Assembly (NCBI GenBank): GCA_038078835.1
Contig: JBBTQI010000003.1
Location: 2,196-66,195, forward strand
Length of the DNA stretch: 64,000 nucleotides
Direction of reading: 5' to 3'
From: Patescibacteria group bacterium
GTDB lineage: Bacteria > Patescibacteriota > UBA1384 > XYA2-FULL-43-10 > 1-14-0-10-43-13
The position numbers and the translations under genes were made by a program. Numbering within the stretch: the first letter of the stretch is position 1; every line of letters starts with the position of its first letter. A model generated the notes under the pieces. It searched no databases. It had not been told where the DNA came from and saw only the letters and a list, made by a program, of their open reading frames with translations. Positions 13,014-63,990 of this stretch are shown here, piece after piece.

Positions 13014-13032
13014 TAGAGGGGACGGTTCTCTT

Positions 13033-18491: not shown

Positions 18492-18608
18492 AAATGGATG
18501 ACTAATTGGTCTAAATAACAAATGACGAATATTCATATCCCCTCTATCTCCCTCCCGCATCGAGTACGGGACAGGCTCTACCTTAGGGGGAGAACCATTG
18601 GTTGTTCG

Positions 18609-21448: not shown

Positions 21449-21508
21449 TGAAGTTTCTGTCTAGAGACTAACATGAAGCAACTGTTTCTGTCAAGAGGAA
21501 ATTTTTGC

Positions 21509-23320: not shown

Positions 23321-23326
23321 GGTGAC

Positions 23327-26595: not shown

Positions 26596-26597
26596 TT

Positions 26598-29580: not shown

Positions 29581-29976
29581 ATGCGCTATAAGGTACCGCA
29601 AAATATTGATATGCAGGACCGGATTTTAGGACCACTAACAATGGTCCAGTTTCTCTATGCCATCATTGGCGGCGGCCTCTGCTACTCCATCTTTATGACC
29701 GTCCCTCGGCCACTCTCTTATGTTTTTGTTGTGCCGCTCGCCCTTTTTACCTTTGCCCTAAGCTTTCTTAAGGTGAACGAGCGGCCATTCTTGGACTTCT
29801 TTCTAGCCGCCATCAACTACTATTCAACCCCCAAAAAGCGGATCTGGCACCACCATGCTGCCGATAACCTCAGTGTCACGATCTTTGAAGCGAAAGCAAA
29901 GAAGAGCGAGGTGCAAACTAAACATATTTCTCACGAGAAGATTGAAGAACTGGCCGGCAAATTAGACCAAACATAA
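29581..29976 (+). CDS. PrgI-family protein (VirB3-like T4SS inner-membrane component)
   Basis: MRYKVPQNIDMQDRILGPLTMVQFLYAIIGGGLCYSIF... then a second TM helix; matches the PrgI family N-terminal pattern. Confidence 0.65.
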   Translation: MRYKVPQNIDMQDRILGPLTMVQFLYAIIGGGLCYSIFMTVPRPLSYVFVVPLALFTFALSFLKVNERPFLDFFLAAINYYSTPKKRIWHHHAADNLSVTIFEAKAKKSEVQTKHISHEKIEELAGKLDQT

Positions 29977-34749: not shown

Positions 34750-36018
34750 ATGAAAAATGATATTTATCAATATCTGAACGCGCGGATATATTTGGCGCTC
34801 TTTGTGATGGTCTCGGCTCTCTTTGGCCTCTACTGGTTTGCGACTCACTCCTACCTCACCATCAAGGTCACGCCGCCGGACGCTATGGTCACGATCAATA
34901 ACGCGCCGGTCTCGCTCTCCGCCGCCGGCAAAATAAAACGGGCTCTCGCGCCGGGCGCCTACTCGCTTCGGATTGAGGCTGACGGCTACGTCGGCTATAT
35001 CGAGGAGGTTGCCCTCAAACGAACTCAGCGCAAAACCGTCTCGGCCAGCCTCACGGAGGCGCCAAAGGTCCAGACTCTGGCGGAATCAGCGAAATTCCTC
35101 TCCGCCGGGCCGGACTTTAACACCATCCACTATCTGGGCGATGATGGCAGAACGCTCTACCGCGCCAAGACAACACTGGAAAACGGCGAGGTCAAACTCA
35201 AAGAGCACCTCCCGATAACCGAGCCGCGGTTCTCCGGCCTTGAGGAGATTGTCTGGTCGCCCGGCAAGGAGCTGGCTCTCCTGCGCAAGAGCGAGGGCAT
35301 CTATCTCTTCGATTTTAAAAAATACGATTTTATCAATCAAACCGAGACATTGTGGGCCAAGAGCGCCGGCAGTCTTGCCTGGTCGCCGGACAACTCCAAA
35401 ATCGCCTATTATTACGCCGACGACAAGGAGAAATCATTAATCTTTACTAATATTGCCAACACCGAACCGGTACGGGTGGCTAATCTGGCCGAGATGAATA
35501 TCGTCAATCCGATTCTGCGCTGGTCGCCGGACTCCGAATGGCTCCTTGTCATACCTCGTAATACTTTTTCATACGATTTAAGCAAAGTTTATGCCTTTAA
35601 CGCCTACAGTCGCTCCTTTATCGAACTGACGGAAACGGGCAGCCAGCTTGACGCCAGCTTCTCGCCGGACGGCAACAGAATCATCTACGGCACGTATTCG
35701 GAGCTCTCCAGCAATCCCGTCACTTCTCTAATATCGATTATGGATAAAGACGGCGCAAACAAACGCTCGCTTAATTTACGCGCCGATATCAGCCGGATGG
35801 CCTGGAAAAAAGACAGTAAAACCTTAGTCGCGGCGACTTATAATCCCTCAAGTCACAAAGAGTCGCTCTTTGGCTTTGACACCGAGAAGAAGCAGAAGAT
35901 TGATTTCTCCGTTAATGCTCTTGATTCGGGTTACATCCGCACTCTGGCCATTTCTGACGACGAAAAGATCATCATTTTTGAGTCGGGGAACGGGATATAC
36001 GGCATCGCAATAGAGTAA
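34750..36018 (+). CDS. Membrane-anchored PEGA-domain plus TolB-like beta-propeller protein
   Basis: TM helix, a PEGA-like LTIKVTPPDAMVTINNAPV...GAYSLRIEADGYV, then repeated WSPD / FSPDG motifs (WSPDNSKIAYY, RWSPDSEWLLV, FSPDGNRIIYG). Confidence 0.5.
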   Translation: MKNDIYQYLNARIYLALFVMVSALFGLYWFATHSYLTIKVTPPDAMVTINNAPVSLSAAGKIKRALAPGAYSLRIEADGYVGYIEEVALKRTQRKTVSASLTEAPKVQTLAESAKFLSAGPDFNTIHYLGDDGRTLYRAKTTLENGEVKLKEHLPITEPRFSGLEEIVWSPGKELALLRKSEGIYLFDFKKYDFINQTETLWAKSAGSLAWSPDNSKIAYYYADDKEKSLIFTNIANTEPVRVANLAEMNIVNPILRWSPDSEWLLVIPRNTFSYDLSKVYAFNAYSRSFIELTETGSQLDASFSPDGNRIIYGTYSELSSNPVTSLISIMDKDGANKRSLNLRADISRMAWKKDSKTLVAATYNPSSHKESLFGFDTEKKQKIDFSVNALDSGYIRTLAISDDEKIIIFESGNGIYGIAIE

Positions 36019-36245
36019 ATCTCAAACAACAAGCACCAAATATCAAATAATTTCCAAATCACAAACCTCAAATAACAAATAAATTCCAGATTGCAATTAC
36101 CAGCTACAAAAGCGTTTGAAAATTAGAGATTGGGACTTGGAACTTATCTAAGATTTGTTATTTGGGATTTAAATTTTACTTGTGGTTTGGTGCTTGGTAT
36201 TTGAGGTTTCTCCGCTTTGGCGGAGAGGAGGGGTTTTGGCAACCG
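36019..36245. repeat. ~220 bp AT-rich MITE-like inverted-repeat element, copy 1
   Basis: ...caagcaccaaatatcaaataatttccaaatcacaaacctcaa...ttacttgtggtttggtgcttggtatttgaggtttctccgctttggcggagaggagg. The arms are imperfect reverse complements. It ends in a small hairpin plus GGAGAGGAGG. Confidence 0.5.
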
Positions 36246-52914: not shown

Positions 52915-54564
52915 ATGCCTGATATTTCCGGCACAATTTACCACCTAAACCGCGAGCAGGAGGAGCGCCATACGCAGGAAATGGCGGCTAAGTTGAATTT
53001 GCCCTATATTAATCTGGTCGGCTATCCCCTGACGAAGGATGTGCTTGATCTGGTCACCGAGGAGATCGCGATTAAGCATCAGATTATTCCTTATCTCAAA
53101 GTCGGCAAGACGGTCAAGGTCGGTCTCGTCCGCCCCGGCGACAAGACAACATCTGACTTTCTGGGACAACACCTAAAGCGACTCGGGGTTGATTTTGCGA
53201 TCTCGGTTATCTCCCAATCCAGTTTTCTCTACGGTATATACTTTTATGACAAGTTAAAGAAGGAATCGGGACTCAAGGCGGAAACGGCCAAGAGAGAGCA
53301 GGAGGAGTCGTTTTCGACCGAAATCAAGGATATCCAAAGCGCCGGCGCGGCGGCAAAAAAGGTGAGCGTGACGCGCCTGCTTGACGTGGTGGTGATGGGT
53401 GCGATCAAGACCAAGGCCTCCGATATTCACCTTGAGCCGGGCGAGAAGGATTTTCTGATCCGCTACCGCGTTGACGGCGTCCTGCAGGATGTCGTGCGTT
53501 TGTCTCTGTCTCAGTTCCACCAGTTGATCTCCCGCATCAAATATCTGGCCCAGCTGCGGATGGATCTCGCCAATCAGCCGCAGGACGGCCGTTTCTCGGT
53601 TAAGGGTTTGGGCGGGGAGAATATCGATTTGCGTATCTCGATTATGCCGACATCCTTCGGCGAGGCGGTGGTGATCCGACTGCTCGGCCAGGAGAAGTCG
53701 ATATTGGAGCTGGACAAGCTCGGTTTCCACCCGGAGGCGCTCTTGGCGATCCGCCAAGCGATCGGCAAGCCCCACGGTATGATTCTCACCTCCGGCCCGA
53801 CCGGTTCGGGTAAATCCTCTACCCTCTATGCCGTTTTGATGGAGTTGAAAAAGCCCGGGGTGAAGATTATCACGCTTGAGGATCCGGTGGAGTATCGGAT
53901 TGAGGGTATCGAGCAAAGCCAGGTCAAACCTGGGGCGGGGTATGAGTTCTCCCAGGGTCTTCGGGCCTCCCTGCGCCAGGATCCGGACATTTTAATGGTC
54001 GGCGAGATCCGTGATGCCGATACCGCCGAAATCGCCATCCAGGCGGCTCTCACCGGCCACCTGCTCATCTCCACTATTCACGCCAACTCCGCTCCGGCCG
54101 TCTTTGCCCGCTTTATCGAGATGGGTGTCAAGCCCTTCCTTCTCTCGGGTTCGATTAACTTGGTGATGGCTCAACGTCTGGTGCGCAAAACCTGTCCTTA
54201 TTGCCGGGAGCAATTTGCCCCCCGGCCGGAGATTTGGCAGGAGATCAAAAACTCTCTTTTGCCAATCAAAGCGCGGCTCGACCAAAAGACCCAGCAGATT
54301 CTAGATAACCCCAAACCGGTCCTTATCCGCGGCCGGGGCTGTGCCCGCTGCAACAACACCGGTTTCCTGGGACGGCAGGTGGTGGTGGAGGTGCTGGTGC
54401 CGGACGAGACGATCGAAGCTCTGATTGCCAAGAGTGCTTCAATCTCGGAATTTGACAAGGCCGCCAGGGGACAGGGTATGATAAGTATGGAACAAGACGG
54501 TTTAATCAAGGTTCTCTCCGGCTCAACGACGGTTGAGGAGGTGTGGAGAGTAACCAAAGATTAG
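52915..54564 (+). CDS. Type II/IV secretion system ATPase (PilB/GspE family)
   Basis: N-terminal GSPII_E_N-like domain, Walker A LTSGPTGSGKSSTLYA, Asp box, MVGEIRD, and a tetracysteine CPYC...CARC motif. Confidence 0.8.
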   Translation: MPDISGTIYHLNREQEERHTQEMAAKLNLPYINLVGYPLTKDVLDLVTEEIAIKHQIIPYLKVGKTVKVGLVRPGDKTTSDFLGQHLKRLGVDFAISVISQSSFLYGIYFYDKLKKESGLKAETAKREQEESFSTEIKDIQSAGAAAKKVSVTRLLDVVVMGAIKTKASDIHLEPGEKDFLIRYRVDGVLQDVVRLSLSQFHQLISRIKYLAQLRMDLANQPQDGRFSVKGLGGENIDLRISIMPTSFGEAVVIRLLGQEKSILELDKLGFHPEALLAIRQAIGKPHGMILTSGPTGSGKSSTLYAVLMELKKPGVKIITLEDPVEYRIEGIEQSQVKPGAGYEFSQGLRASLRQDPDILMVGEIRDADTAEIAIQAALTGHLLISTIHANSAPAVFARFIEMGVKPFLLSGSINLVMAQRLVRKTCPYCREQFAPRPEIWQEIKNSLLPIKARLDQKTQQILDNPKPVLIRGRGCARCNNTGFLGRQVVVEVLVPDETIEALIAKSASISEFDKAARGQGMISMEQDGLIKVLSGSTTVEEVWRVTKD

Positions 54565-54790
54565 ACCAAAAAATCCCAAATTACAAGCACCAAATAACAA
54601 ATAATTTCCAAATCACAAACCTCAAGTAATAAATAAATTCCAGATTTCAATTACTAACTACAAAAGCGTTGAAATTGAAATTAGAGATTGGAACTTGGAG
54701 CTTATCTGAGATTTGTTGTTTGATATTTGTAATTTACTTGTGGTTTGGTGCTTGTTGTTTGAATTTTCTCCGCCAAGGGCGGAGAGGAGG
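54565..54790. repeat. ~220 bp AT-rich MITE-like inverted-repeat element, copy 2
   Basis: Close to colinear with copy 1 (...acaagcaccaaataacaaataatttccaaatcacaaacctcaag...tacttgtggtttggtgcttgttgtttgaattttctccgccaagggcggagaggaggg). Its terminal GGAGAGGAGG acts as the SD for the ATG at 54795. Confidence 0.5.
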
Positions 54791-54794
54791 GATT

Positions 54795-55619
54795 ATGACA
54801 AGGAGGGGACGGAGGAGAAAATTTTCACCCCGGAGATGGCTTATGCTGGGCATTTTTTCGATTCTGGCGGTAGTTTTTGCCGCGAACTTAAATTTGATCT
54901 CCGCTGATACTAGGGCGGCTGATCCGCTCAAAGGGTCCAAGCTGGAGACTGATGTTGACAGTCCGTACGGCGACCGAGTTGTGGCCGAGTTTCCCAATAA
55001 TCGCGACTGCATCTTTTTTAGCGTCAATGCAATTAAAAAGGATGGCGGCGCCTTAACCGGAGAGAAGATGAGAATAGATCTTTTTAACGGCGCTCATCTG
55101 CGGGACGCCTCTTCGCGAGCCGAGATTGATGCCGGCAATCAGAGCACGGGCGGCGGCCAAACCAGATACTGTCTGACCTCCTCGGAGGCAAGGAAGGGAA
55201 CGGTGACGGTGAAGCTGGCGAACTATCCGAGAACCAAGAAAAAATTCAAAGTTAGTTTTAAACCTGTCGGCAAAGTTGCCAACACTACCGACACTGGCAC
55301 CTTCTTTGGCGACCAGGCGGTCACCTTTGCCGCCGAGATCGCGCCTTGGATGACTAATAATATTAAAGAGGCGAAACTGGTTTACTCCTACCGCCGCCGC
55401 TACAACTCCTGGGGGAGATGGAAGAATCGGGCTGAGACCGAGGAGAAGGCGCTCACCTGCATTGACAGCCGCTGCGAGGCGACGATCGGCGGCTATAAAG
55501 ACGGCCCGACCTCTCTCAACCGCGTTAGCAAGGGCCGCTTTACTTATACTTTTCAATTTACCGACGAGAACGGCAAAAGTTTCAAAAAGTCATTTAGAGG
55601 CAAACTAAAATCACCCTAA
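54795..55619 (+). CDS. Secreted hypothetical protein with an Arg-rich N-terminus plus TM/signal helix; paralogue of 60669-62039
   Basis: MTRRGRRRKFSPRRWLMLGIFSILAVVFAANLNLISADTRAADPLKG resembles MAKRRRSRRGFSARTRVRLLIGTAAILLAVVGV...ADADPNLKA of the paralogue. Start taken at the ATG after the MITE-derived SD. Confidence 0.5.
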   Translation: MTRRGRRRKFSPRRWLMLGIFSILAVVFAANLNLISADTRAADPLKGSKLETDVDSPYGDRVVAEFPNNRDCIFFSVNAIKKDGGALTGEKMRIDLFNGAHLRDASSRAEIDAGNQSTGGGQTRYCLTSSEARKGTVTVKLANYPRTKKKFKVSFKPVGKVANTTDTGTFFGDQAVTFAAEIAPWMTNNIKEAKLVYSYRRRYNSWGRWKNRAETEEKALTCIDSRCEATIGGYKDGPTSLNRVSKGRFTYTFQFTDENGKSFKKSFRGKLKSP

Positions 55620-55629
55620 TGCTTACATA

Positions 55630-55673
55630 ATCCACCTGGAAGGTGAATGCGCCCAAACACCTTCCAGGTGGAT
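55630..55673. terminator. Conserved hairpin CCACCTGGAAGGTG-N12-CACCTTCCAGGTGG, copy 1 (terminator-like)
   Basis: atccacctggaaggtg aatgcgcccaaa caccttccaggtggat, directly after the stop of the 54795-55619 gene. Confidence 0.5.
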
Positions 55674-55738
55674 TACTCGCTCGAACTATAACAAAAACCG
55701 CTTCGATCGCGAGCGGTTTTTGCTGTTATCACTAAGAT

Positions 55739-56056
55739 TTAATTAACGGCAGTATTGGCAGTGCCGGCAACGGCGTTGACGATGACGTAAGCCAGAACGA
55801 TGATGATGATGCCGATAATGGCGTTAACCACGCCCTGCTGGCCCTTCTTGGCGGCATCGGGGTTGCCGGCGGCGGTCAAGTAGAGAATGCCGGAGTAGAT
55901 CAGGTAGATAACGGCGATGGCGCCGGCAATCGGCAGAACCACGCTTGTAATAGCGCCGCTGATTAATGGAACAACTCCCTCCTCTCCGCCCTTGGCGGTG
56001 TCCAGGGTTATGTCACTCAAACCCTCATCAGCAAGGGCTCTTTGAACCAAATTCAT
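55739..56056 (-). CDS. Small VirB2/TrbC-like (T4SS pilin-like) two-helix membrane protein, paralogue 1
   Basis: ...VVLPIAGAIAVIYLIYSGILYLTAAGNPDAAKKGQQGVVNAIIGIIIIVLAYVIVNAV. Start at the internal Met MNLVQ preceded by GGAGGAG. Shares the core motif with the four other pilin-like copies. Confidence 0.5.
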   Translation of the reverse strand: MNLVQRALADEGLSDITLDTAKGGEEGVVPLISGAITSVVLPIAGAIAVIYLIYSGILYLTAAGNPDAAKKGQQGVVNAIIGIIIIVLAYVIVNAVAGTANTAVN

Positions 56057-56189
56057 CTCTCCTCCTTTTATTAGGTCTAAATGAAAAATATTGTGCCTGC
56101 GATCGACCCTCGCTCTATGCACACCGCAGGACATGCTTAATAGCTAACTTGCTTTCTAAATCCTACCACACCCCTCAAATCTTTTGCAA

Positions 56190-56513
56190 CTATAATTTTA
56201 ACAAAGTGCCGCGGACGGCCCGGACAATGGCGTAGGACAAAACGATGACGGCGATGCCGATGATGGCATTAACCACTCCTTGCTGGCCCTTTTTGGCGTT
56301 ATCGGGATTGCCGGCGGCGGTGATGTAGAGAATGCCGGAGTAGATGAGGTAGAGCACAGCCAGAGCGCTGGCGATCATTAAGAGAATGTTGACGATGCCG
56401 GTGATGAGGCCGGCAATATTGTCGGTGCCGGTGGCAAAGGCGGTGCCGCCGGAGAGATCGCTGACGGCGTCGCCGGCCGAGGTGGCGGCGCGGCTTGATT
56501 CAATTATCTTCAT
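56190..56513 (-). CDS. Small VirB2/TrbC-like pilin-like membrane protein, paralogue 2
   Basis: ...LLMIASALAVLYLIYSGILYITAAGNPDNAKKGQQGVVNAIIGIAVIVLSYAIVRAV, nearly identical in its core to paralogue 1 (tandem duplicate). Confidence 0.55.
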   Translation of the reverse strand: MKIIESSRAATSAGDAVSDLSGGTAFATGTDNIAGLITGIVNILLMIASALAVLYLIYSGILYITAAGNPDNAKKGQQGVVNAIIGIAVIVLSYAIVRAVRGTLLKL

Positions 56514-56538
56514 TTATCCTCCATGATAACTCACCGCC

Positions 56539-56586
56539 AACCCACCTGGAAGGTGTTTGGCCACACTCACCTTCCAGGTGGGTTGG
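56539..56586. terminator. Conserved hairpin CCACCTGGAAGGTG-N12-CACCTTCCAGGTGG, copy 2
   Basis: aacccacctggaaggtg tttggccacact caccttccaggtgggtt, between pilin-like genes 2 and 3 (downstream of the stop of gene 3 on the minus strand). Confidence 0.5.
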
Positions 56587-56590
56587 AATA

Positions 56591-56932
56591 TCACCCTAAA
56601 AATTTATTTGTTGTCAAGATTGCCACGATGGCGCGGGCGGCCAGGACAAGGATCAAACCCAGGATGGCCCAAGTCAGGGTTTTCTTGGCGTTCTCCGCCT
56701 CCGCCTCGTTTCCTTGCGATTTCACGTACAAAAAAGCGGCGTAAAGAATGTAGATAAAAGCGACCACGGCGGCGGCGTTAAGGGCCATAGTGATAATAAG
56801 CCCGACATAGCCGCCATTCTCACTATTATAAATATCACCAAGACCCTTCTTGGTGCCGTCAAAACCGCGCCCGTCCCAGATGCTCTCGGGTAAACTTGCG
56901 GCGTAAGTTTTTTGAATTAAGAAATCCATCAT
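56591..56932 (-). CDS. Small VirB2/TrbC-like pilin-like membrane protein, paralogue 3
   Basis: ...MALNAAAVVAFIYILYAAFLYVKSQGNEAEAENAKKTLTWAILGLILVLAARAIV. Confidence 0.5.
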   Translation of the reverse strand: MMDFLIQKTYAASLPESIWDGRGFDGTKKGLGDIYNSENGGYVGLIITMALNAAAVVAFIYILYAAFLYVKSQGNEAEAENAKKTLTWAILGLILVLAARAIVAILTTNKFLG

Positions 56933-56952
56933 TTAGAAAAATTTTACTCCCC

Positions 56953-59900
56953 CTACCCCTTCTTCACAAGAGGGATGATGACGCTGGTGGTGAGGCGGAC
57001 GAGGGCGTAGGCCAAAATTAAGACAATGACGCCGGTGACGGCGTAAGTTAAGACCTTTTTCGCTTTGTCGGATTTGCCGGTGTCGCCGCCGGAGGTGATG
57101 TACATAATGCCGCCGGAGATAAGAGCGAGGAGGGAGAGGGTCATTACCAGCCAGTAGAGAATCTCGACGATTCGCACTGCCAGCTCGTAAATACTGTTAA
57201 TCATACTGCCGCCGATCAGCTCATTCGGTTTCAGACCGCCGCCCCCGCCTTGGTCAGGCGGACAAATCGGCTTGCTGCCGTCGGCTGGGTCAGTACAGCC
57301 CTTATTGCTGGCGTTGGGGTCGAGTGTGATCGCCCGCTCGGCCTTGCCGGTGCATCTTGTAACCGTGTCATCGCTTAAATCGGCGATCTCGTTAAGGGTG
57401 TATCCCTCTCCGGAATCGTTGTCGGCATCAATCGCCTCCTCACTATCATCCGATGTTAGCCCCAAGGTTTCACCAGATCTCAGATCGGCGATGATTTTAG
57501 CGCGGGAGGCCTGCGCGCCTCGAGCGATCTGCTTAATCAGCTGGCTTAAGATAATATCGCTATCATCACTGTTGTAACTCTCCTCTTTCAATCCAGTATC
57601 CCCTTTGTCGGTATTAGTGTCATTAGATTGGCCGTCAGTTTGATCATTCACTTTGGTGCTATTGGTATTTGGCTGATCGACCGGTGTTTCGGTCTCGCCT
57701 GTCGGACTCTCCTCCAGACCTGTTGTCGAACCCGCCTCGATTAATCCCCGCTCAATCTCACCAAACGCACTCCGGCAATTCTCCAGCTGATCGATATCAA
57801 TGCCGCGATAGGTTTTAACCCGGATATAGTGAAGGCCGGCCTCACTGTCGCTGTTCGGCCAATCGGTGTAGACAAACTCCTCGGCCTCGCCCTTGTTATT
57901 TTTGTTAAAAGTACAGGCTTTTTTAAGACTCCACTCCTCTTCTTTAAGGTTTTTAAGATCATCGGCGCTGCCTACCTTGGGTGAGATATAAAGCTTTAAG
58001 ACATCACTGACACTCAAGTCATCGGCACGGCGTTTCTCCAGGGGGGGTCTCACTTTGATTTTAGTCATCGCCGCCGCCTGTTTATCGGGATCGGTCGCCT
58101 TTTTAATCTGGCTCGGCGCGTTGATAGAGATGGAACAGCCAAAACAGCCGTTGACCTGGTTATCGTCATTTTCGCCATTCGGTCCGAAAATTTTGAAGTC
58201 TTTTGTCGCTTCACTGATTATTGTTCCACTGTTAGTAATAGTAATCCTAAATTGGTGATTTCCGATTCCAAGAGGACCGCCCTTGTCATTGCCACCGGAA
58301 ACTTGACCGGAGAGCGCCGATGTATGGAATGCGGCATTGAGATCCCAAAGAAACTCACCCTCATAACCGATTGTACCGGCAATAAATTTGGTATCCGCAA
58401 GATAGTTTGGACTATCCTTGGAGATAATTTCTAAAACCGCCGAAAAACCGCCGCCCTTAACTTGACTTAAAATTTTATCATTGGGGTTTACTTTATAAGG
58501 AATGGAGACACTGTTGCCGTAATTGCGGAAGATTTTATCGAAGTTGGAATTTTTATCATCGCGGCCGTCAATATACTCTTTGGTCAAGCGGAAGGAGGCG
58601 GGGGCGGTGATTTTGATCTCGTCGTTGCCCCACTCCTCCAGGGCGTAAGACATATAGCTGTCGTAAATCCGCTGGATGATCTCTTTGTCGTCACTGCTTT
58701 TGGCTTTTCCCAGAGCCTCCTTAAGCAGAGCGGCCGCCTTGGAGTTGGCGCGGGCGTTTTCGTACTTGCCGCCCTCATACCGGCCGGGAGAAGAGATAGA
58801 GCAGATTTGTACTTGTTTATCGAGATTAACCAAGACTTGAACATTGGGATCCTCGCCCTCATTCATGCCCTTGCAGGTGCCAGAGGGCCCGCCGTAGATA
58901 TCGAGCCATTTATAGCTGCCCTGGTCGCGCCAAGCGTAAAAGGTCGGGTTTTTAATCGCGTCTTTAATGGTTTGGATCGACTGATGAGCGTCAACTTTGT
59001 CGCTCAGGTTGTCGCCGGCATTATCCTCAATAAATTTATAGATCTCCTGAATGTAGCCCCAGGTCTTCTCGTCGTTCTTCTGGTCAATGACAATAACCTC
59101 ATCCCGCTTGATCTGACGGGATAGAGTAAGTTCTTCTCCTTCGACCAAATTGAAGGGATAGAAGTAAACTCTCTCGGTTAATTCGGAGATCGCCTTGGCT
59201 TTACTCCGACCGTCTTTGAGCTTGCCGGAGATGCCGCAGAGAACAAAGTTTTCGCCGTTGACGCCGTAAGGCTTGTCAAAACTGCCGCAGTTTTTGAGAG
59301 CGAGATAGGAATTGATATAGGTGCGGAGGTTGTTAATGGAGGCAAGGGCTTTACTGGTATCGCCGCCGGATTCATTATCCTCGGAGGCATCCCGAACCGC
59401 TTCGTACATCTTTAAAATCTTACCGGCAAGAGCGGTGGTGAGCGGCGTTGTTGCCTCCGAAATGTAATAGTTGGCCGCCATTTCCCGGGGGATGACGGCA
59501 TTATCACCCTGGAAGAAGGGCCAGGCTTGAATCGGCATGCCGTTAAAGTGGCCGACGTTTTTAATGTTATTGATATCTTCCTCGGTGAGGCCGTATTTTG
59601 AATATTTGTAAACCAGAAACGAATCGATTGTTTTGTAAGTAACGACCTCGTAAACCCCGTTGGACTCCTGCTTGGCCTTGAGCGCCTCGCCGATGGTGTT
59701 AGACCACCCCTCGGCCTGCTGGTAATCAGTCTGGGCTTCCTTCTCGCCATCAGCTTTATTGCCGCCGCGCTGTTTGGCGCTGGTCATAATCGCCTTGTAG
59801 ATCTTTTGAAGATTTTTCCAGTTGGGACGGGTTAAGGTGTTAACCTCAATCTTGCTGGCGAGATAGGGGTTGGCATTAAGTTTTAAGGTATCGGCACTGC

Positions 59901-60465
59901 CGTCATACTCCGCCTGGTAGATATTAAAGTTGAGAGTTTGCCGCTCCTCCGCTTTTTTGACGTGCTTGCTTAAGTCGTAGAGGGTAAAACCGTTGTACGA
60001 GCTGTAGCTGGCCTGACTTTTGCTTAAGCGCCGGCTAACCTCCTGCATAACGCGGCGGGCATGGCCCTCATTCACCAGGTTTCTCTCGCGGCGGGCGGCG
60101 CTCTGGATATCGCTATAAGTGCCGTAAACCGCCTTCCAGCTGTCATAGAGACGCTCAACCTTCTTGCTCTCGCTATCGTAAATGTCGTCGATGGCACTTG
60201 GCGCCAGGACAATTGGCAGTTCCAGCTGTTTGTTGCTTCTAATAAATTTGGCGGTGGCGTCGTTAGCCTTAATTTTGTCATAATCCTCTTTTGAGAGACG
60301 GTAATAGACAAAATTATCGCCGGCACGGTCATAGGTTTCGTTGGGGTTAATATCGGCGCCGACCTGCAGGCGGGAATAAGCGAGGATTCCGCCGATCATC
60401 AAAAAGAAGGGCAGTGCCAGCAGCCCGCTAAACTTCCAAAATTTTCGGCTCAAACCGAGTTTCAT
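56953..60465 (-). CDS. Large (~1170 aa) membrane-anchored protein whose C-terminal ~70 aa form a pilin-like domain (pilin fusion, candidate tip/adhesin subunit)
   Basis: C-terminus ...LVMTLSLLALISGGIMYITSGGDTGKSDKAKKVLTYAVTGVIVLILAYALV matches the pilin-like core. N-terminal TM helix LLALPFFLMIGGILAY. Start moved to MKLGLS (rc ATG at 60463-60465), because the upstream in-frame extension is encoded by hairpin copy 3. The middle of the protein has no recognisable domain. Confidence 0.55.
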   Translation of the reverse strand: MKLGLSRKFWKFSGLLALPFFLMIGGILAYSRLQVGADINPNETYDRAGDNFVYYRLSKEDYDKIKANDATAKFIRSNKQLELPIVLAPSAIDDIYDSESKKVERLYDSWKAVYGTYSDIQSAARRERNLVNEGHARRVMQEVSRRLSKSQASYSSYNGFTLYDLSKHVKKAEERQTLNFNIYQAEYDGSADTLKLNANPYLASKIEVNTLTRPNWKNLQKIYKAIMTSAKQRGGNKADGEKEAQTDYQQAEGWSNTIGEALKAKQESNGVYEVVTYKTIDSFLVYKYSKYGLTEEDINNIKNVGHFNGMPIQAWPFFQGDNAVIPREMAANYYISEATTPLTTALAGKILKMYEAVRDASEDNESGGDTSKALASINNLRTYINSYLALKNCGSFDKPYGVNGENFVLCGISGKLKDGRSKAKAISELTERVYFYPFNLVEGEELTLSRQIKRDEVIVIDQKNDEKTWGYIQEIYKFIEDNAGDNLSDKVDAHQSIQTIKDAIKNPTFYAWRDQGSYKWLDIYGGPSGTCKGMNEGEDPNVQVLVNLDKQVQICSISSPGRYEGGKYENARANSKAAALLKEALGKAKSSDDKEIIQRIYDSYMSYALEEWGNDEIKITAPASFRLTKEYIDGRDDKNSNFDKIFRNYGNSVSIPYKVNPNDKILSQVKGGGFSAVLEIISKDSPNYLADTKFIAGTIGYEGEFLWDLNAAFHTSALSGQVSGGNDKGGPLGIGNHQFRITITNSGTIISEATKDFKIFGPNGENDDNQVNGCFGCSISINAPSQIKKATDPDKQAAAMTKIKVRPPLEKRRADDLSVSDVLKLYISPKVGSADDLKNLKEEEWSLKKACTFNKNNKGEAEEFVYTDWPNSDSEAGLHYIRVKTYRGIDIDQLENCRSAFGEIERGLIEAGSTTGLEESPTGETETPVDQPNTNSTKVNDQTDGQSNDTNTDKGDTGLKEESYNSDDSDIILSQLIKQIARGAQASRAKIIADLRSGETLGLTSDDSEEAIDADNDSGEGYTLNEIADLSDDTVTRCTGKAERAITLDPNASNKGCTDPADGSKPICPPDQGGGGGLKPNELIGGSMINSIYELAVRIVEILYWLVMTLSLLALISGGIMYITSGGDTGKSDKAKKVLTYAVTGVIVLILAYALVRLTTSVIIPLVKKG

Positions 60466-60518
60466 TGCCAAAAAAGCGATGCTAATGACGAATTTACATG
60501 CGAATGACCAGAATGCTT

Positions 60519-60562
60519 GCCCACCTGGAAGGTGAATGTGCTCAAACACCTTCCAGGTGGGC
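60519..60562. terminator. Conserved hairpin CCACCTGGAAGGTG-N12-CACCTTCCAGGTGG, copy 3
   Basis: gcccacctggaaggtg aatgtgctcaaa caccttccaggtgggc, downstream of the stop (60669) of the secreted paralogue gene. Confidence 0.5.
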
Positions 60563-60668
60563 AACACAGGTGGGCAACAGAAGACTCCCTGGTTGGCGAT
60601 TAACGGTTCGTTTCGTTTATGATTTGTCCGGATGTGCCTATCGGATCATCTTTTATTTTTCACAGGAT

Positions 60669-62039
60669 CTACTCCGCCTTTACTTCCGGCCAGTCGATCT
60701 TGACGGTTTTCTTGTGCGTCTTGCCGTCGCTGGTCTTGAACTTGAAGGTGTACTCGTTAATCTGGCGGACAATGCTTTCCGGGTAAACCTTTCTGATTTT
60801 GTTATTGTTGCGAATTATCTTAATAATATCGCTTGGGACCGTGACCTGTCCGCTAAAAGAAAACGATACATTGGCATATGTCTGTTGGGCAGAGTAGGCG
60901 CCCTTGCCTTCGTTAAAGTTTAAAGTGTGATCATCGGTAATATTTTTTTTGCCGGCGTCGGTGTTGTACTGCCAATTTTGGCCGTCGGTGGTTTCGCAGG
61001 CCGGACAACCGATGATATCTTGCCGCCAGAAGAGATCATATTTTACCTCAAGCGTGGCTTCGGTAATGTCGGCGATGGCGGCCGGATTAACTTTGGCGGC
61101 GTAAAGATACTGGCCGGCGGTTCTGTTTTTGACGGCATCCTGGTCGGTAATATCCTCAACCATAAGATCAGGTGCGACAAAGCTTACTTTAAGGTCGGCT
61201 GATTTTCGGGTATAGTTCTTGAGTTTGACCTTGATCTCTTTGTTTTTTATCTCTTTATCGGAGGTAAAGACCCACTGCGTCTCGCCCGAACTGGTATCAG
61301 CCTCAACCGTCGTGCCCTCCTTGCCCTCCATCCTGACGTTTTGGGGCAGTTCGATGATAACCGGCTGATTGGCGAGGGCGGAATCATCGGCTTTGTAAAA
61401 TCGCGCCGTTACTCTGATGCCGTGTTCCACTTTGCCGGTGTTGTAGCCGGTGGGAGTGCTGTCGTTGTCAAGCGGCGAGGATGTTTCAAATTTGATTTGG
61501 GCATTTTTGAGAATATCCTGTTCACCTGCCGTGGCATCGGGCGTCTCGACGAAGACGGTCTTTATAGTGAATTTGCGGTAAACTTTCGGCTGACCGAGGA
61601 CATTTTCGCCGATCTTAAACCAGAAATAAACCTTCTTGACGCCTTTTTTCTCGGAGGTGATGCACTGATCAAGGGTGCCGTCTCCGGTTGTCGATTCAAA
61701 GGTGCCGGTTTGGCCATTAATAGTGATGTTGGAGCTGTTCTTGGGCGCTTTCATCCAGAGTGTCTGGTCAAAGAGCGGCGACTCTTCTTCGTCCTCAAAA
61801 TCTATGATCGGATTGGCGCAGTCTTTACCGTCGGCTATCGCCTGCAGGGTGGATGACTCTGTGTCCAGTGTGACCCTGGCTGTTTTTAGAAAGGCTTTAA
61901 GGTTGGGATCGGCGTCGGCCGAGGCGGTGTTGTAATTCATTACTCCGACCACGGCCAATAATATCGCTGCCGTGCCGATCAGCAGACGAACTCTGGTCCG
62001 GGCGGAGAATCCGCGTCGCGATCGTCTCCTTTTTGCCAT
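60669..62039 (-). CDS. Secreted hypothetical protein, paralogue of 54795-55619 (Arg-rich N-terminus plus TM/signal)
   Basis: MAKRRRSRRGFSARTRVRLLIGTAAILLAVVGV, start after GAGGAGGA (rc of tcctcctc at 62042-62049). Beta-rich body with no recognisable domain. Confidence 0.5.
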   Translation of the reverse strand: MAKRRRSRRGFSARTRVRLLIGTAAILLAVVGVMNYNTASADADPNLKAFLKTARVTLDTESSTLQAIADGKDCANPIIDFEDEEESPLFDQTLWMKAPKNSSNITINGQTGTFESTTGDGTLDQCITSEKKGVKKVYFWFKIGENVLGQPKVYRKFTIKTVFVETPDATAGEQDILKNAQIKFETSSPLDNDSTPTGYNTGKVEHGIRVTARFYKADDSALANQPVIIELPQNVRMEGKEGTTVEADTSSGETQWVFTSDKEIKNKEIKVKLKNYTRKSADLKVSFVAPDLMVEDITDQDAVKNRTAGQYLYAAKVNPAAIADITEATLEVKYDLFWRQDIIGCPACETTDGQNWQYNTDAGKKNITDDHTLNFNEGKGAYSAQQTYANVSFSFSGQVTVPSDIIKIIRNNNKIRKVYPESIVRQINEYTFKFKTSDGKTHKKTVKIDWPEVKAE

Positions 62040-62062
62040 ATTCCTCCTCTTTTTATAGTGAT

Positions 62063-62419
62063 TTAACAATAAAACAATTTGATAATCGTCGAAGTTGTCT
62101 TTGTCGGATCGGGGAGGGCGAGGAAGCTGAGGATCAGTTTAACCAGCCAGAGCGTGGCTAAGCCGAGGATGGCTCCCAGAAAAATCTCTTTGGCCTCGCC
62201 GATGGCGGTCTGGTTGCCGGCGGAGGTGATGTAGCGGTAGCCGGCATAAATAATCATCAAAACGGCCAGGGCGGAACCGAGCTTTAAGGCAAAGCCATAC
62301 ATATCGGCAATATAGGTGGCGTAAGTGTAGCTGGTGCGGCTGCTGCCGGGAATGCCGACACCGATACCGACACCCTCGGCGGCATACACCTTTGTTAAGT
62401 TTATAAAGTTATTTACCAT
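62063..62419 (-). CDS. Small VirB2/TrbC-like pilin-like membrane protein, paralogue 5
   Basis: ...GSALAVLMIIYAGYRYITSAGNQTAIGEAKEIFLGAILGLATLWLVKLIL. Confidence 0.5.
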   Translation of the reverse strand: MVNNFINLTKVYAAEGVGIGVGIPGSSRTSYTYATYIADMYGFALKLGSALAVLMIIYAGYRYITSAGNQTAIGEAKEIFLGAILGLATLWLVKLILSFLALPDPTKTTSTIIKLFYC

Positions 62420-63801
62420 CCTGTCTTTCTTAAGCTCTCGGTAATGGTGTTGGCGGCGAGGTCGAGAGCGGCTTGGGGTTCCTGGGTATCATTGTTTACT
62501 GCATTGATTGCCAGGCGGAAGGCATCATCAAAGTTGCCGGGGTAGCGGCCCTTGACCAGCGATTTGGCGGTGGCCAAGGAGAGTTTCTCGGGATTATTGC
62601 CTTTGCGCTCATCAATCGAGATATCATAACTTTTGGCTTTGGCGGCAGTGTAGAGACGGGTAGCCGAGTTAAAGCTCTTGGCGGCATCGTCAACCAGAAT
62701 CTTGACCGCCCCCCAAGAGGTGTTTGGCGCTTTGGAGAGGCGATTGACGCCAAAAGCCTGGAAGCGGGTGTAATCAACGATCTTCTCGGCGTCCTGCTCG
62801 ACTTGCGGCACAAAGGCCTTTTTGTACTTAAGATCAGGATACTTTTGGTCAAAATAATTAGCCAGGCCGCTGTAGCCAAAGATCATTGCCGCCTTTCCGT
62901 TGGCGAAGGCCTCAATCTCACTGCCAAGCGAGTCGTTCCAAGTATGGTTATCACTGCCGGGATCGGCAAAGGAGGTGTAGAATTCCAGCGCCCGGCGGCC
63001 GGGGTAGTCGTTGCCGCCCCGGGCGGTGGCGGCCGGCAGATTAAAGGTAGCCAAATTCATCTCCGAGGCGACAACCGGAGTTTCGTTTTGCATCATCAGG
63101 AGATAGAGAATGTCGGGGGCGAGAGTGACGTTGCTGGTGCCGAGCGCGACGCCGGCCCTTTCGATGTCATCGCCATCGGTTTCGGTCAGAAGGTTGGCCA
63201 GCTCGATAAAGTCAGTCCAGTTTGCCGGTATTGTCTTGAGCAGGTTAGAATACTGCGCTTTGGTTTCGGGATCATCTCCGTATTCCTCCTTGATCTCCTC
63301 TTTGGCCGAGTCAAAGATGGCAGGGTTGTAGTAAACCATTAAGGGTTCGGCCGAGGGCGAGAGAGCGTAGATCTGATTGTTAAAATAGACCGATTGTTTG
63401 ACGGCCGGCACAAATTGGCTATCAAGACTCACAGTCTTGGCTAGTGCCGTCGGCATCGGCTGGAGCTTCTCTTTGTGGCGATAGACCCAGTCGTTGGGCA
63501 TCGCCCAGATATCGGGTTTTTGGGTCGAGAGCACCGAGTTCATCACCCGGTTTTCGTAATCGGCATCAAAGGTCTGTTTCTCGTAGACCAGAGCGTAGCC
63601 CTCATATTCACTTTCAAATTTCTTCTCAACCGGCTTCCAGGCATCTTCATCCTCAAAACTCCAGACGACAATCTGCTTGGAGGCCGGATCCTCGGCCGAT
63701 TTCTTTTTGGGGATAATGGTACAGCCGGAGAGCAGGAATGAAAAAAGAACGCCAAAGGCGGTGTACTTAACAATTCGACCGATCTTTTTAGTTGGACTCA
63801 T
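62413..63801 (-). CDS. Lipoprotein, extracellular solute-binding protein (ABC transporter family-1 SBP-like)
   Basis: Lipobox FLLSGC after a signal peptide. Mature body ~440 aa with SBP-like segments (IVVWSFEDEDAW..., KAAMIFGYSGLANYF). Confidence 0.55.
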   Translation of the reverse strand: MSPTKKIGRIVKYTAFGVLFSFLLSGCTIIPKKKSAEDPASKQIVVWSFEDEDAWKPVEKKFESEYEGYALVYEKQTFDADYENRVMNSVLSTQKPDIWAMPNDWVYRHKEKLQPMPTALAKTVSLDSQFVPAVKQSVYFNNQIYALSPSAEPLMVYYNPAIFDSAKEEIKEEYGDDPETKAQYSNLLKTIPANWTDFIELANLLTETDGDDIERAGVALGTSNVTLAPDILYLLMMQNETPVVASEMNLATFNLPAATARGGNDYPGRRALEFYTSFADPGSDNHTWNDSLGSEIEAFANGKAAMIFGYSGLANYFDQKYPDLKYKKAFVPQVEQDAEKIVDYTRFQAFGVNRLSKAPNTSWGAVKILVDDAAKSFNSATRLYTAAKAKSYDISIDERKGNNPEKLSLATAKSLVKGRYPGNFDDAFRLAINAVNNDTQEPQAALDLAANTITESLRKTGW

Positions 63802-63814
63802 ATCTCCCTCTCCT

Positions 63815-63990
63815 GTTCAAAATCCCAAACAACAAATATCAAATAACAAATAATTTCCAATTTTCGAATTTCAAAAACTTTGGACTTTGGTAGTTGAAAT
63901 TTATTTGGGATTTGGTTTTTGGATTTTGTAATTTCCGAAACTTTGTTTTACAAAGTTTCGGCTGTTTCTCTTATAAACTTCGCAAACTCG
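63815..63990. repeat. Diverged third copy of the ~220 bp MITE-like element (upstream of the SBP gene start)
   Basis: aaatcccaaacaacaaatatcaaataacaaataatttccaa ... ttggatttggtttttggattttgtaatttccgaaactttgttttacaaagtttcgg. Shares the 5' arm words and the inverted structure with copies 1 and 2. Confidence 0.35.

Follow-up and report, generated by a model that had tools for sequence, protein, structure and literature searches.

Described pilin arrays and the locus in groundwater Patescibacteria

Pilin arrays associated with the T4SS are an already known kind of locus in Patescibacteria, described between 2023 and 2025 (PMC10633639, PMC12102498, PMC12857230). Arrays of 2-11 VirB2-like genes were reported in 383 Patescibacteria assemblies, with T4SS genes that often sit close to dnaA and relaxases for the most part missing (PMC12102498), and in Southlakia epibionticum the pilin array is essential (PMC10633639, PMC12857230). 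The locus analyzed here comes from a Patescibacteria MAG of the Hainich groundwater metagenome and lies within a 64-kb stretch of DNA (the window) that also contains the replication origin. Taken as a whole, the region is probably a VirB2-like (PF18895) pilin operon close to the origin of this groundwater member of the Patescibacteria (CPR). Like the described arrays (SEML1_0014-0019 and the "secreted protein array" of TM7x; PMC10633639, PMC12102498, PMC7427843), it has divergent paralogues with the same PF18895 domain in a Patescibacteria host, a position near the origin and dnaA, and Hsp20 and ComF-like neighbors, while the genome encodes a monoderm (MPF_FATA-like) VirB4/PrgI/TrsD set with no relaxase or coupling protein nearby.

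The preliminary description regarded this combination of genes as not a textbook operon, which is correct against Proteobacterial textbooks only, as it corresponds to a published Patescibacteria array. Nevertheless, there are differences. VirB4 is located 22 kb away, on the other side of oriC, whereas in the described cases the array is inside the T4SS cluster; in further contrast to those cases, the array here contains a 1170-aa modular pilin and an inserted secreted Ig-like protein and has a convergent PilB-type ATPase gene as neighbor. Four details were not found in the array descriptions consulted: a gene for an SBP lipoprotein heading the operon (11/11 loci), four position-conserved pilin classes of which one is modular with a genome-specific large ectodomain, a 9-residue leader ending in Ala in place of a Sec signal peptide in the small pilins, and a 230-nt 5′ element common to the array region and a gene of the T4SS cluster.

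Gene content and synteny of the array

The seven open reading frames of the preliminary description were all confirmed at the coordinates it had given. Read along the minus strand, the operon order is SBP lipoprotein, pil5-type pilin, secreted Ig-like protein, modular pilin, pil3-type pilin, two pil1/2-type pilins, and a terminator. The first gene (62413..63801, minus strand) encodes a solute-binding lipoprotein of the SBP_bac_1 family (Pfam SBP_bac_1, E 9.6e-11; lipobox LSGC), with a weak match to a maltodextrin-binding protein in the PDB, and its last 7 nt are also the first 7 of the leading pilin gene. An orthologue is found directly upstream of the pilin array in all 11 loci (26-59% identity in the nine whose DNA was compared), and the lipoprotein may have a role in the system.

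The small pilins, all encoded on the minus strand, fall into three of the position-conserved classes. The first slot after the SBP gene is occupied by pilin class 1 (pil5-type; 62063..62419, 118 aa, PF18895 34.1 bits), with positional orthologues at five loci (L006, L007, L008, L011, and L015), and class 3 (pil3-type; 56591..56932, 113 aa, 34.2 bits) has them at six (L006-L009, L011, and L015). Class 4 (pil1/2-type) is the most conserved and is represented by pil2 (56190..56513, 107 aa, 40.6 bits), which is 44-57% identical to homologues from many metagenomes, and by pil1 (55739..56056, 105 aa, 43.8 bits), the last gene of the operon. Pil1 is a recent tandem duplicate, with 62% amino-acid identity to pil2 and 81% DNA identity over 172 nt, and the pil1/2-type pilin is likely the major subunit. 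The order SBP, pil5-type, a fusion of a variable protein to a pilin, pil3-type, and pil1/2-type recurs at L006, L007, L008, and L015. The flanking genes (ComF-like, Hsp20, and NTP-transferase) are partly those of the essential S. epibionticum array SEML1_0014-0019, likewise flanked by Hsp20 and ComF-like genes.

Two secreted paralogues were previously described as interleaved with the pilin genes. Their paralogy holds: the similarity is weak but collinear, extending over 124 aa (E 2e-7) and recurring in the leader and at the C-terminal end. However, only Sec2 lies within the array. Sec2 (60669..62039, minus strand, 456 aa) has an Arg-rich leader and is beta-rich and Ig-like, with sub-threshold matches to Big_1 and MG4; a search of 5.8 billion proteins returned no homologue other than itself, no counterpart was found in the related loci, and it is a lineage-specific insertion within the array. 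Sec1 (54795..55619, 274 aa), also secreted with an Arg-rich leader, is encoded on the plus strand, opposite to and outside the array, and has no Pfam or NCBIfam family. Strong Shine-Dalgarno sequences precede the chosen starts of pil1, pil2, sec1, and sec2.

Pilin domains and the modular pilin

The five paralogous VirB2/TrbC-like domains of the preliminary description, in the four small proteins and at the C-terminus of the large one, were borne out by profile searches. All five exceed the PF18895 (T4SS_pilin) gathering score of 26.6 bits, the lowest being that of the large protein (29.4 bits), and nine of ten pairwise BLASTP comparisons among them are positive (E 4e-32 to 9e-5), with no match found between the C-terminus of the large protein and Pil5. 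An HMM built from the five domains found no sixth copy in the 64-kb window. The proposed topology also stands, since every domain has two hydrophobic segments flanking a short polar loop and AlphaFold2 predicts a confident helical hairpin for the pil1/2-type pilin (helices 32-64 and 70-106, pLDDT above 90). In all four small pilins, a polar N-tail of ~30 residues precedes the first hydrophobic helix; across the aligned family, the basic loop (NPDAAKKGQQG) hardly varies (entropy of 0.42 bits) and the N-tail is hypervariable (2.72 bits). A signal peptide had been expected as well, but no Sec-type signal peptide was found in the four small pilins, only the 9-residue leader.

Among 42 close family members, PF18895 was matched in all, DUF6112 in 26, and TrbC/VirB2 in 21 at E ≤ 0.01 (best E 7e-7), the latter being the commonest second match with a named function after DUF6112. 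The window's own pilins reach 16-17 bits against PF04956, under its cut-off of 27.9. Like VirB2, TrbC, and TraA (PF04956; PDB 8cue, 8exh), they are small proteins in which a short basic loop joins two hydrophobic helices, with a presumed N-out/C-out topology, and the mature T-pilin aligns with them collinearly. No direct comparison with solved VirB2-type pilins reached significance, whether by hhalign against A. tumefaciens VirB2 (E 0.015, 3% probability), by profile search of the PDB (E 0.81), or by Foldseek (best match to a conjugative pilus, E 3.4), and structural searches do not separate the hairpin from other transmembrane hairpins. Unlike here, VirB2 and TraA have a long Sec signal peptide cleaved by LepB, and in contrast to Gram-negative T4SS, the host is monoderm and VirB5, VirB7, VirB9, and VirB10 are absent.

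The large protein (56953..60465, minus strand, 1170 aa; NCBI name "MAG: pilin [Patescibacteria group bacterium]") is indeed a pilin fusion, as had been proposed. From the N-terminus, it comprises a leader/anchor and an ectodomain of ~1050 aa, which an acidic low-complexity linker joins to a C-terminal PF18895 hairpin (residues 1090-1157); transmembrane segments are at 9-33, 1095-1125, and 1135-1168. Its start is ambiguous (1170 or 1204 aa), with no obvious Shine-Dalgarno sequence. In the ectodomain, approximately five helix-helix-beta-hairpin repeats precede a region rich in beta structure; AlphaFold2 gives pLDDT values of 70-88 at residues 45-600 and low ones elsewhere, no significant match to PDB folds was obtained, and the three relatives found are all of identical architecture. 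Within this pilin class the large ectodomain differs from genome to genome, and its position is exactly that of the variable N-tail of the small pilins. To our knowledge, neither fusion to a large N-terminal ectodomain nor tandem poly-pilins have been described for VirB2. The concept alone resembles the modular type IV pilins PilB and PilC of Streptococcus sanguinis, which have adhesive modules: a polymerization module joined to a large functional or adhesive module among ordinary pilin genes. The fold is unrelated, however (class-III signal and a single N-terminal helix in S. sanguinis), the assembly machine is different, and the module follows the pilin domain there but precedes it here.

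It is conceivable, though unlikely, that PF18895 hairpins stay embedded in the membrane without an extended pilus, either as channel or stalk subunits of the T4SS or as two-helix anchors of surface proteins. Many family members consist of 2-7 hairpins in tandem or have one or two of them at the C-terminus of an unrelated large ectodomain, and thus resemble polytopic membrane proteins or anchors; the ones with 5-7 tandem hairpins per polypeptide sit awkwardly with a simple helical polymer. The absence of a signal peptide or demonstrated processing site, and the similarity of the hairpin to other transmembrane hairpins in structure searches, agree with such a role, and we know of no T4SS-dependent pilus observed in any Patescibacterium. 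A pilus of a monoderm T4SS is unreported, the possibility being called merely "intriguing" in PMC12857230. Yet the four position-conserved classes, of which one is duplicated and highly conserved, recall filament systems, in which major subunits are accompanied by minor ones, and a hypervariable outward N-tail versus an invariant loop is the pattern expected of a surface-exposed polymer subunit. The resemblance of the family to TrbC/VirB2 and to a pilin-like protein of an ICE (see below) also counts against a purely membrane-bound function, and we favor pilins that would polymerize.

T4SS genes and shared 5′ elements

A Gram-positive-type T4SS is encoded at 29.5-37.7 kb of the window, on the plus strand. 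It includes a PrgI/VirB3-like membrane protein (29581..29976; Pfam PrgI E 6.8e-12), a TrsD-like protein resembling the N-terminal domain of VirB4 (30131..31189; NCBIfam TrsD E 3e-7, VirB4_plasma E 3e-9, CD1110 positions 2-82), and a VirB4-family ATPase of the monoderm CD1110/MPF_FATA type (31603..33441), which passes the NCBIfam equivalog cut-off (conju_CD1110, 367.8 bits against 325) and also matches Pfam TraG P-loop and AAA_10. A membrane-anchored CHAP-domain cell-wall hydrolase follows (33498..34748; Pfam CHAP E 1.5e-6, transmembrane segment 24-61) and is a functional analogue of VirB1/PrgK. The scanned ORFs of the window included neither a relaxase nor a coupling protein, and in none of the 10 related loci does a VirB4 gene lie within 8-10 kb of the array.

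Both parts also match protein models of the Mycoplasma ICE, likewise a monoderm T4SS. Pil2 matches its pilin-like conjugal transfer protein Mbov_0395 over 76 of 80 model positions (E 1e-6), and the TrsD-like protein and VirB4 match the Mbov_0397 VirB4 family, named by NCBI for the same ICE gene series (NF045849, NF045975), with scores under the equivalog cut-offs (28 versus 40 and 264 versus 590). The Mycoplasma genes, carried on an ICE, form a conjugative system; those described here are chromosomal and near the origin, with no relaxase nearby.

A further connection between the two regions is an AT-rich imperfect palindrome of ~230 nt, including the ribosome-binding site and its hairpin, upstream of sec1 (54565..54794, plus strand; dG -75.6 kcal/mol, z -7.1), which matches no Rfam family at the gathering score. 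A copy with 85% identity over 224 nt is located in the T4SS cluster (36017..36235, plus strand), upstream of an M23 peptidase gene (start TTG at 36236) that is followed by the gene for a 2773-aa surface protein, and another copy, which has diverged, precedes the SBP-pilin operon (63819..63934). The array is also interspersed with three REP-like hairpins: copy 1 in the gap where the array and sec1 converge (55628..55675; dG -40.2 kcal/mol, z -7.85), copy 2 between pil3 and pil2 (56537..56586; dG -39.6 kcal/mol, z -6.8), and copy 3, a perfect hairpin (CCACCTGGAAGGTG-N12-CACCTTCCAGGTGG), between sec2 and the large pilin gene (60517..60564; dG -43.5 kcal/mol, z -6.95). An intrinsic terminator, with a GC stem and then a T-run as read from the sequence, follows the last pilin gene (55690..55722, minus strand).

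The neighboring PilB-type ATPase

The adjacent ATPase (52915..54564, plus strand; MshEN and T2SSE domains) is of the PilB/GspE type, as previously stated (Pfam T2SSE E 7e-120; NCBIfam GspE 477 bits, PilB 466 bits, and VirB11 just 42 bits). The unconventional fiber system proposed in the preliminary description, in which VirB2-like hairpin pilins would be assembled by this type IV pilus-type motor, draws on the proximity of the two, since a PilB-type gene adjoins the array in eight of 11 loci, at times only 3-10 nt away. Moreover, the gene is an orphan: no type IV pilus pilin, PilC, PilM/N/O, PilT, or prepilin peptidase was found in the 64-kb window. However, wherever it adjoins the array, PilB is convergent with it and so never co-transcribed, forming in the window its own unit after a tRNA gene, and the SBP-pilin module, which stays together in 11/11 loci, occurs with no PilB gene within 8-10 kb at L012, L013, and L014. 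All eight PilB-bearing loci have the origin-proximal arrangement (jag, yidC, rnpA, dnaA), and the adjacency is thus explained by shared ancestry of gene order. PilB-family ATPases work with a PilC platform and with pilins that have a class-III signal and a single N-terminal helix. That motif is absent from these proteins, as already noted, and was found nowhere in the window; the relatives of the hairpin family are T4SS pilins, a VirB4 system is present in the window, and it is the T4SS cluster that shares the 230-nt 5′ element with the pilin region. A hybrid fiber is thus very improbable. Nothing observed ties the array to PilB, which is best read as a syntenic neighbor belonging to a type IV pilus/competence machine encoded elsewhere.

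That the Pfam name misleads and the small proteins are holins, bacteriocin-immunity proteins, or toxin-antitoxin membrane peptides can practically be dismissed: two transmembrane segments are common to many unrelated families and there are weak sub-threshold matches to TctB, DUF350, and MpPF26, but no holin or immunity family was matched, the PF18895 and TrbC/VirB2 matches run through the family, neither a lysin nor a bacteriocin is encoded in the operon, and synteny is conserved beside the T4SS and the origin, with an essential orthologous array in S. epibionticum.

Proposed assembly and function

In the favored reading, that of a T4SS pilin operon, both tails of the small pilins, the hypervariable polar one at the N-terminus and the short one at the C-terminus, would face outward, and the invariant basic loop would face the cytoplasm or the filament lumen. 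Since the small pilins have no Sec signal peptide, their membrane insertion is probably YidC-type. Extraction and assembly of the pilins would probably depend on the VirB4-containing, monoderm-type T4SS across oriC, with PrgI/VirB3, TrsD, VirB4, the CHAP hydrolase, and a candidate polytopic VirB6-like protein as parts of the machine; the same pilin-T4SS partnership was proposed in the published model for the essential Saccharibacteria T4SS. In the modular pilin, the cleavable-looking N-terminal leader would export the ectodomain. If its hairpin enters a polymer, this ectodomain would be exposed on the surface or at the tip of the filament, where it may act as an adhesin or host-recognition module.

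Composition and gene order of the pilin array

The pilin cluster picked out in the preliminary description is genuine and was correctly spotted. All of the open reading frames that it listed are present where it had placed them, and the five pilin domains that it regarded as paralogous all pass the Pfam T4SS_pilin profile PF18895 (43.8, 40.6, 34.2, 34.1 and 29.4 bits in the profile search, for a curated gathering score of 26.6 bits). Four of these are small proteins, pil1 (55739-56056), pil2 (56190-56513), pil3 (56591-56932) and pil5 (62063-62419), and the fifth, bigC, is the C-terminal hairpin of a modular pilin of 1170 aa (56953-60465), all encoded on the minus strand. Nine of the ten pairwise BLASTP comparisons are significant, with E values from 4e-32 (pil1/pil2) to 9e-5, the pair of bigC and pil5 being the only one with no match. 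An HMM built from the five domains found no further copy within the 64-kb window.

The array holds five pilin domains in 6.7 kb, interrupted by one non-pilin gene. On the minus strand, the order is a gene for an SBP_bac_1 lipoprotein (SBP, 62413-63801), the pil5-type pilin, the secreted protein sec2 (60669-62039), a hairpin, the modular pilin, the pil3-type pilin, a second hairpin, pil2, pil1, an intrinsic terminator and a last hairpin. The genes are tightly spaced: in the window, SBP overlaps the first pilin gene by 7 nt, sec2 lies 23 nt past pil5, and the pil3-type gene lies 20 nt past the modular pilin. The starts used for pil1, pil2, sec1 and sec2 are backed by Shine-Dalgarno sequences; the large gene could begin at either of two positions, giving 1170 or 1204 aa.

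Ten related loci were collected, nine of them by way of small-pilin relatives and the tenth by way of a relative of the large protein, so that with the window 11 loci were compared, each pilin domain of the related loci being assigned to its best-matching window paralogue. The order SBP, pil5-type, large fusion of an unrelated domain to a pilin (X-pilin), pil3-type, pil1/2-type recurs in L006, L007, L008 and L015, and L009 lacks only the first pilin. Given this position-specific orthology, the paralogues are four old, differentiated classes rather than the product of a recent amplification. The sole recent duplicate is pil1/pil2 (81% DNA identity over 172 nt); in full alignment, pil2 is 56% identical to pil1 (62% over the BLASTP-aligned region) and the other domains 22-24%. 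The pil1/2-type, with the consensus AVIYLIYSGILYITAAGNPDAAKKGQQGIINAVIGI, is by far the most conserved class and is likely the major subunit. An SBP_bac_1 gene immediately precedes the first pilin gene in all 11 loci, with SBP identity running from 59% to 26% across the nine loci whose DNA was compared.

Weak, collinear similarity upholds the earlier view that sec2 and sec1 (54795-55619, plus strand) are secreted, Arg-rich paralogues. Both have no counterpart in the related loci and are lineage-specific, and a word-indexed homologue search with sec2 matched only sec2 itself. Their Arg-rich leaders contain RRGFS and RRKFS, a candidate Tat signal. A common leader pattern, made of basic residues with R/K-x-F, a hydrophobic stretch and then N..[GS]A|D[TP], is found in the large protein, sec1, sec2 and several unrelated X-pilin fusions.

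The modular pilin and its exchanged ectodomain

With the word-indexed homologue search, the large protein matched only itself. An exhaustive HMMER search gave 4,447 cluster representatives (E<=0.001), nearly all of them through the pilin hairpin, and only three of them are related in the ectodomain (P0123, E 4e-100; P0124; P0125), sharing the architecture of a hydrophobic N-terminal leader, a large ectodomain and a hairpin at the C-terminus. Fusions are recurrent in the family, with unrelated ectodomains of 300-700 aa joined to one or two C-terminal hairpins, and polyproteins of 5-7 tandem hairpins also occur among PF18895 members (P0126, P0143, P0170, P0181, P0213). Some of the tandem poly-pilins carry Cys-rich C-terminal domains.

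The second pilin slot is filled by fusions of 668-732 aa in L007, L008 and L009, whose ectodomains have no detectable similarity to that of the window; L015 has a 683-aa fusion in the same slot, which lay outside the ectodomain comparison. A conserved slot with an exchanged displayed module is what one would expect for host recognition, and since the ectodomain is swapped among related genomes, the modular pilin is a candidate host-range determinant. The AlphaFold2 model of the 1170-aa protein, built from four sequences only, has a mean pLDDT of 52.8 and is confident at residues 45-600 alone, where about five repeats of two long helices and a beta-hairpin are predicted. A PDB fold search with this model gave nothing significant, the best match being a phage tail-tip protein (E 0.029, TM 0.06).

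Family, fold and membrane insertion of the small pilins

Hydropathy confirms the proposed two-helix topology, with two hydrophobic segments in each domain separated by a short polar/basic loop conserved as NPDAAKKGQQG. In the AlphaFold2 model of pil2 (42-sequence alignment), residues 1-30 form a disordered N-tail, followed by helices at 32-64 and 70-106 with pLDDT >90. Over the 42 family members, the loop is near-invariant (0.42 bits entropy, net charge about +1), and the first nine residues are conserved as M-N-L-I-E-K-x-x-A, with a nearly invariant Ala; the polar N-tail, 13-28 residues long, is hypervariable (2.72 bits) and slightly acidic.

The suggested relationship to TrbC/VirB2 holds in part: 21 of the 42 relatives match PF04956 at E<=0.01, but the window proteins stay below its gathering score of 27.9 (pil1 16.4 bits, pil3 17.5 bits), and pil2, pil5 and bigC have no match to the profile. 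In the PDB sequence-profile search, a sensory rhodopsin transducer and VirB2 appear only above E 0.2 (VirB2, 8cue, E 0.81). An hhalign comparison of the 42-sequence family with Agrobacterium tumefaciens VirB2, its sequence checked against PDB 8cue, is collinear and not significant (E 0.015, 3% probability). Foldseek against the PDB with a small pilin returned as best hit an ion-channel helix pair (E 1.3), with an archaeal conjugation pilin (8dfu) at E 3.4; the fold searches discriminate poorly, as a helical hairpin is too simple. At the sequence level, pil2 matches the NCBIfam model of the Mycoplasma ICE "Mbov_0395 pilin-like conjugal transfer protein" (E 1e-6).

A Sec-type signal peptide was not found in the four small proteins, there being no hydrophobic segment ahead of the hairpin; among the five pilins, only the 1170-aa protein has a hydrophobic N-terminal leader. 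In this respect the small pilins differ from canonical VirB2, TrbC and TraA, which have a long Sec signal peptide cut by signal peptidase I. With no hydrophobic signal, insertion would require a YidC-like route. The sequences suggest N-out/C-out hairpins with the N-tail exposed at the surface, as in VirB2 and TraA, and a short propeptide ending in an Ala-x-Ala-like site may be removed. If they behaved as canonical VirB2/TrbC/TraA do, the small pilins would polymerise with phospholipid into a putative extracellular pilus. In view of the absent signal peptide and the poly-pilins of tandem hairpins, the hairpins may instead have a membrane-resident role without an extended pilus, though this is the less likely reading.

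The neighboring PilB-type ATPase

It had been proposed that VirB2-like pilins and the adjacent PilB/GspE-type ATPase (52915-54564, plus strand) form an unconventional hybrid fibre. The ATPase does adjoin the array, but on the opposite strand and convergently. It is of the true PilB/GspE type (477 and 466 bits in NCBIfam, with VirB11 at 42 bits), and such ATPases act through PilC on class-III pilins. As the preliminary description had stated, the class-III signal is absent: a regular expression for G|[FM]T[LI][IL]E had 0 matches over all six-frame ORFs of >=40 aa in the window, and PilC, PilM/N/O, PilT and prepilin peptidase were not found among the ORFs scanned in the 64 kb. Of the 11 loci, eight have a PilB-type ATPase beside the array, convergent each time and each time together with jag, yidC, rnpA and dnaA. 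No PilB was present within 8-10 kb of the SBP-pilin module in L012, L013 and L014, where the module lies near nusA, tig and clpP, or near glycosyltransferases. The SBP-pilin module thus remains intact at these other genome sites, and the most likely reason why PilB lies beside it near the origin is inheritance of the gene order there. Given the convergent gene, the adjacency missing in 3/11 loci and the failure to find class-III pilins and PilC in the window, a PilB-driven fibre is thus not supported, and the PilB neighbour is probably outside the pilin system. As for holins, bacteriocin-immunity proteins and other alternative families, the family searches supported none.

The T4SS cluster and its genomic setting

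The source proteins have exact matches on Hainich groundwater metagenome contigs, and the large protein is labelled "MAG: pilin [Patescibacteria group bacterium]" at NCBI. The window spans the replication origin, and cumulative GC skew changes direction near 50 kb; recF, dnaN and dnaA lie at 46.3-50.2 kb on the minus strand, and rnpA, yidD, yidC, jag, a tRNA and PilB at 50.7-54.6 kb on the plus strand. A perfect 32-nt palindrome (49870-49901), with two inverted DnaA-box-like motifs TTATCCACA, is found within the 5' part of the dnaA coding region. Amid housekeeping genes there are an IS200-type Y1 transposase (13033-13683) and a tyrosine integrase (17364-18560), and a TsaD-like ORF (11550-13136) matches its profile in four separate stretches, suggesting an insertion or fusion.

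A monoderm-type T4SS cluster occupies 29.5-37.7 kb on the plus strand. PrgI/VirB3 (Pfam, E 6.8e-12), a TrsD-like protein (E 3e-7) and VirB4 are encoded at 29.5-33.4 kb, the last passing the NCBIfam equivalog cut-off of the CD1110 family (367.8 bits, cut-off 325; MPF_FATA-like, Patescibacteria type). The cluster further includes a membrane-anchored CHAP hydrolase, a PEGA/beta-propeller protein and an M23 peptidase, and a candidate polytopic VirB6-like protein is encoded at 23327-26161. Both the TrsD-like protein and VirB4 match the Mbov_0397 VirB4 model of NCBIfam, which, like Mbov_0395, is named by NCBI from one ICE gene series; the Mycoplasma ICE, another monoderm T4SS, likewise pairs a pilin-like protein with VirB4. 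The distance from VirB4 to the array is 22 kb, and VirB4 does not adjoin the array in any of the 11 loci. Relaxase and coupling protein were not found in the 64 kb.

Other features of this region were recorded. A DUF559 (Vsr-like endonuclease) gene (31161-31592) lies between the TrsD-like gene and virB4, and the TrsD-like protein has a long low-complexity tail rich in Pro, Glu and Ala. An AbiEi/AbiEii toxin-antitoxin pair (28129-29504), directly upstream of the PrgI gene, divides the recognisable T4SS genes from two envelope-protein blocks (21473-27740). After the M23 peptidase gene comes a giant surface protein of 2773 aa (37639-45960), which carries an N-terminal signal and matches neither Pfam nor NCBIfam; an equivalently placed gene in L006 shares 53% identity with its C-terminus, and thus it is conserved in the origin-proximal T4SS region. 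The T4SS cluster (21-46 kb, plus) and the pilin operon (55.7-63.8 kb, minus) both read in the direction of the origin (about 50 kb) and so run head-on to replication, whereas highly expressed genes are usually co-oriented with it.

A shared 5' element and dispersed hairpins

The 230 nt upstream of sec1 (54565-54794) contain an AT-rich imperfect palindrome and a small hairpin overlapping the ribosome-binding site, and as RNA would fold at -75.6 kcal/mol (z -7.1). Within the T4SS cluster, the stretch immediately upstream of the M23 peptidase gene (36017-36235) is 85% identical to it, and the M23 start was therefore placed at TTG 36236; the giant-protein gene follows in the unit that this copy precedes. 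A diverged copy (63819-63934) lies upstream of the SBP-pilin operon. Rfam gave no family at gathering score for the element, which may act as a promoter or 5'-UTR control element common to these units. Judging from this common 5' DNA, T4SS-cluster genes, sec1 and the pilin operon may be regulated together. A 23-nt sequence, CCGCCAAGGGCGGAGAGGAGGGA, is identical at 54770-54792 (plus), in the sec1 5' UTR and ribosome-binding site, and at 55976-55998 (minus), in the pil1 coding region, where it encodes AKGGEEG; the pair is possibly a scar left by recombination of the 5' element with a pilin gene.

The perfect hairpin CCACCTGGAAGGTG-N12-CACCTTCCAGGTGG, with an 18-19-bp stem, a 12-nt loop and about -40 kcal/mol, has three copies in the window, all within the pilin array (55628-55675, 56537-56586 and 60517-60564), partitioning it into pil5-sec2, big-pil3 and pil2-pil1. 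In the metagenome scan, a fourth copy was found on another contig of the same aquifer (L010, 1416-1455), between hisS and an unrelated membrane-protein gene, and the hairpin was absent from the four related arrays checked (L006-L009). These two observations speak against a role as pilin-specific regulatory or recombination sites; the hairpin is probably a REP-like element enriched in the array.

Relation to described systems and biological meaning

Arrays of this kind were published in 2023-2025, and the locus is therefore of a described kind and not a new system. Quinonero-Coronel et al. used PF18895 and PF04956 to screen 3,035 Patescibacteria genomes (PMC12102498), a 2025 review regards the systems concerned as the first Gram-positive-type T4SSs with potential pili (PMC12857230), and a pilin array orthologous to that of the window is essential in S. 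epibionticum (PMC10633639). In that species, Hsp20 and ComF-like genes come after the array SEML1_0014-0019, and they likewise flank the arrays of the window and its relatives. The shared 5' element and the published essentiality of the orthologous array indirectly suggest that the pilins may be required for, or assembled by, the T4SS. In the literature consulted on these arrays we found no mention of the coupling to an SBP, of ordered pilin classes, of a modular pilin whose ectodomain is exchangeable, of the short leader or of the shared 5' element, and no account of a VirB2-type pilin of modular build, of minor pilins in a fixed order or of an SBP as partner of a T4SS.

As a tentative and, in our judgment, rather improbable reading, the operon would be an ordered four-class monoderm T4SS pilus set, with a conserved major and three specialised pilins, in which the modular pilin acts as host-recognition adhesin and which is always coupled to an SBP. 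The modular VirB2-type pilin would then expose a rapidly evolving ectodomain, at most about 1050 aa long, as adhesin, and the SBP could link contact between filament and host cell with the capture of host-derived solutes.

A large part of bacterial diversity belongs to the Patescibacteria, which live attached to host cells. In the only species amenable to genetics, this lifestyle requires both the T4SS and its pilin array. Besides correcting the tempting misreading of a PilB neighbour that is probably no part of the system, the locus offers testable details, namely the four-class gene order, the swapped ectodomain, the SBP travelling with the array and a regulatory element in common with the T4SS cluster.
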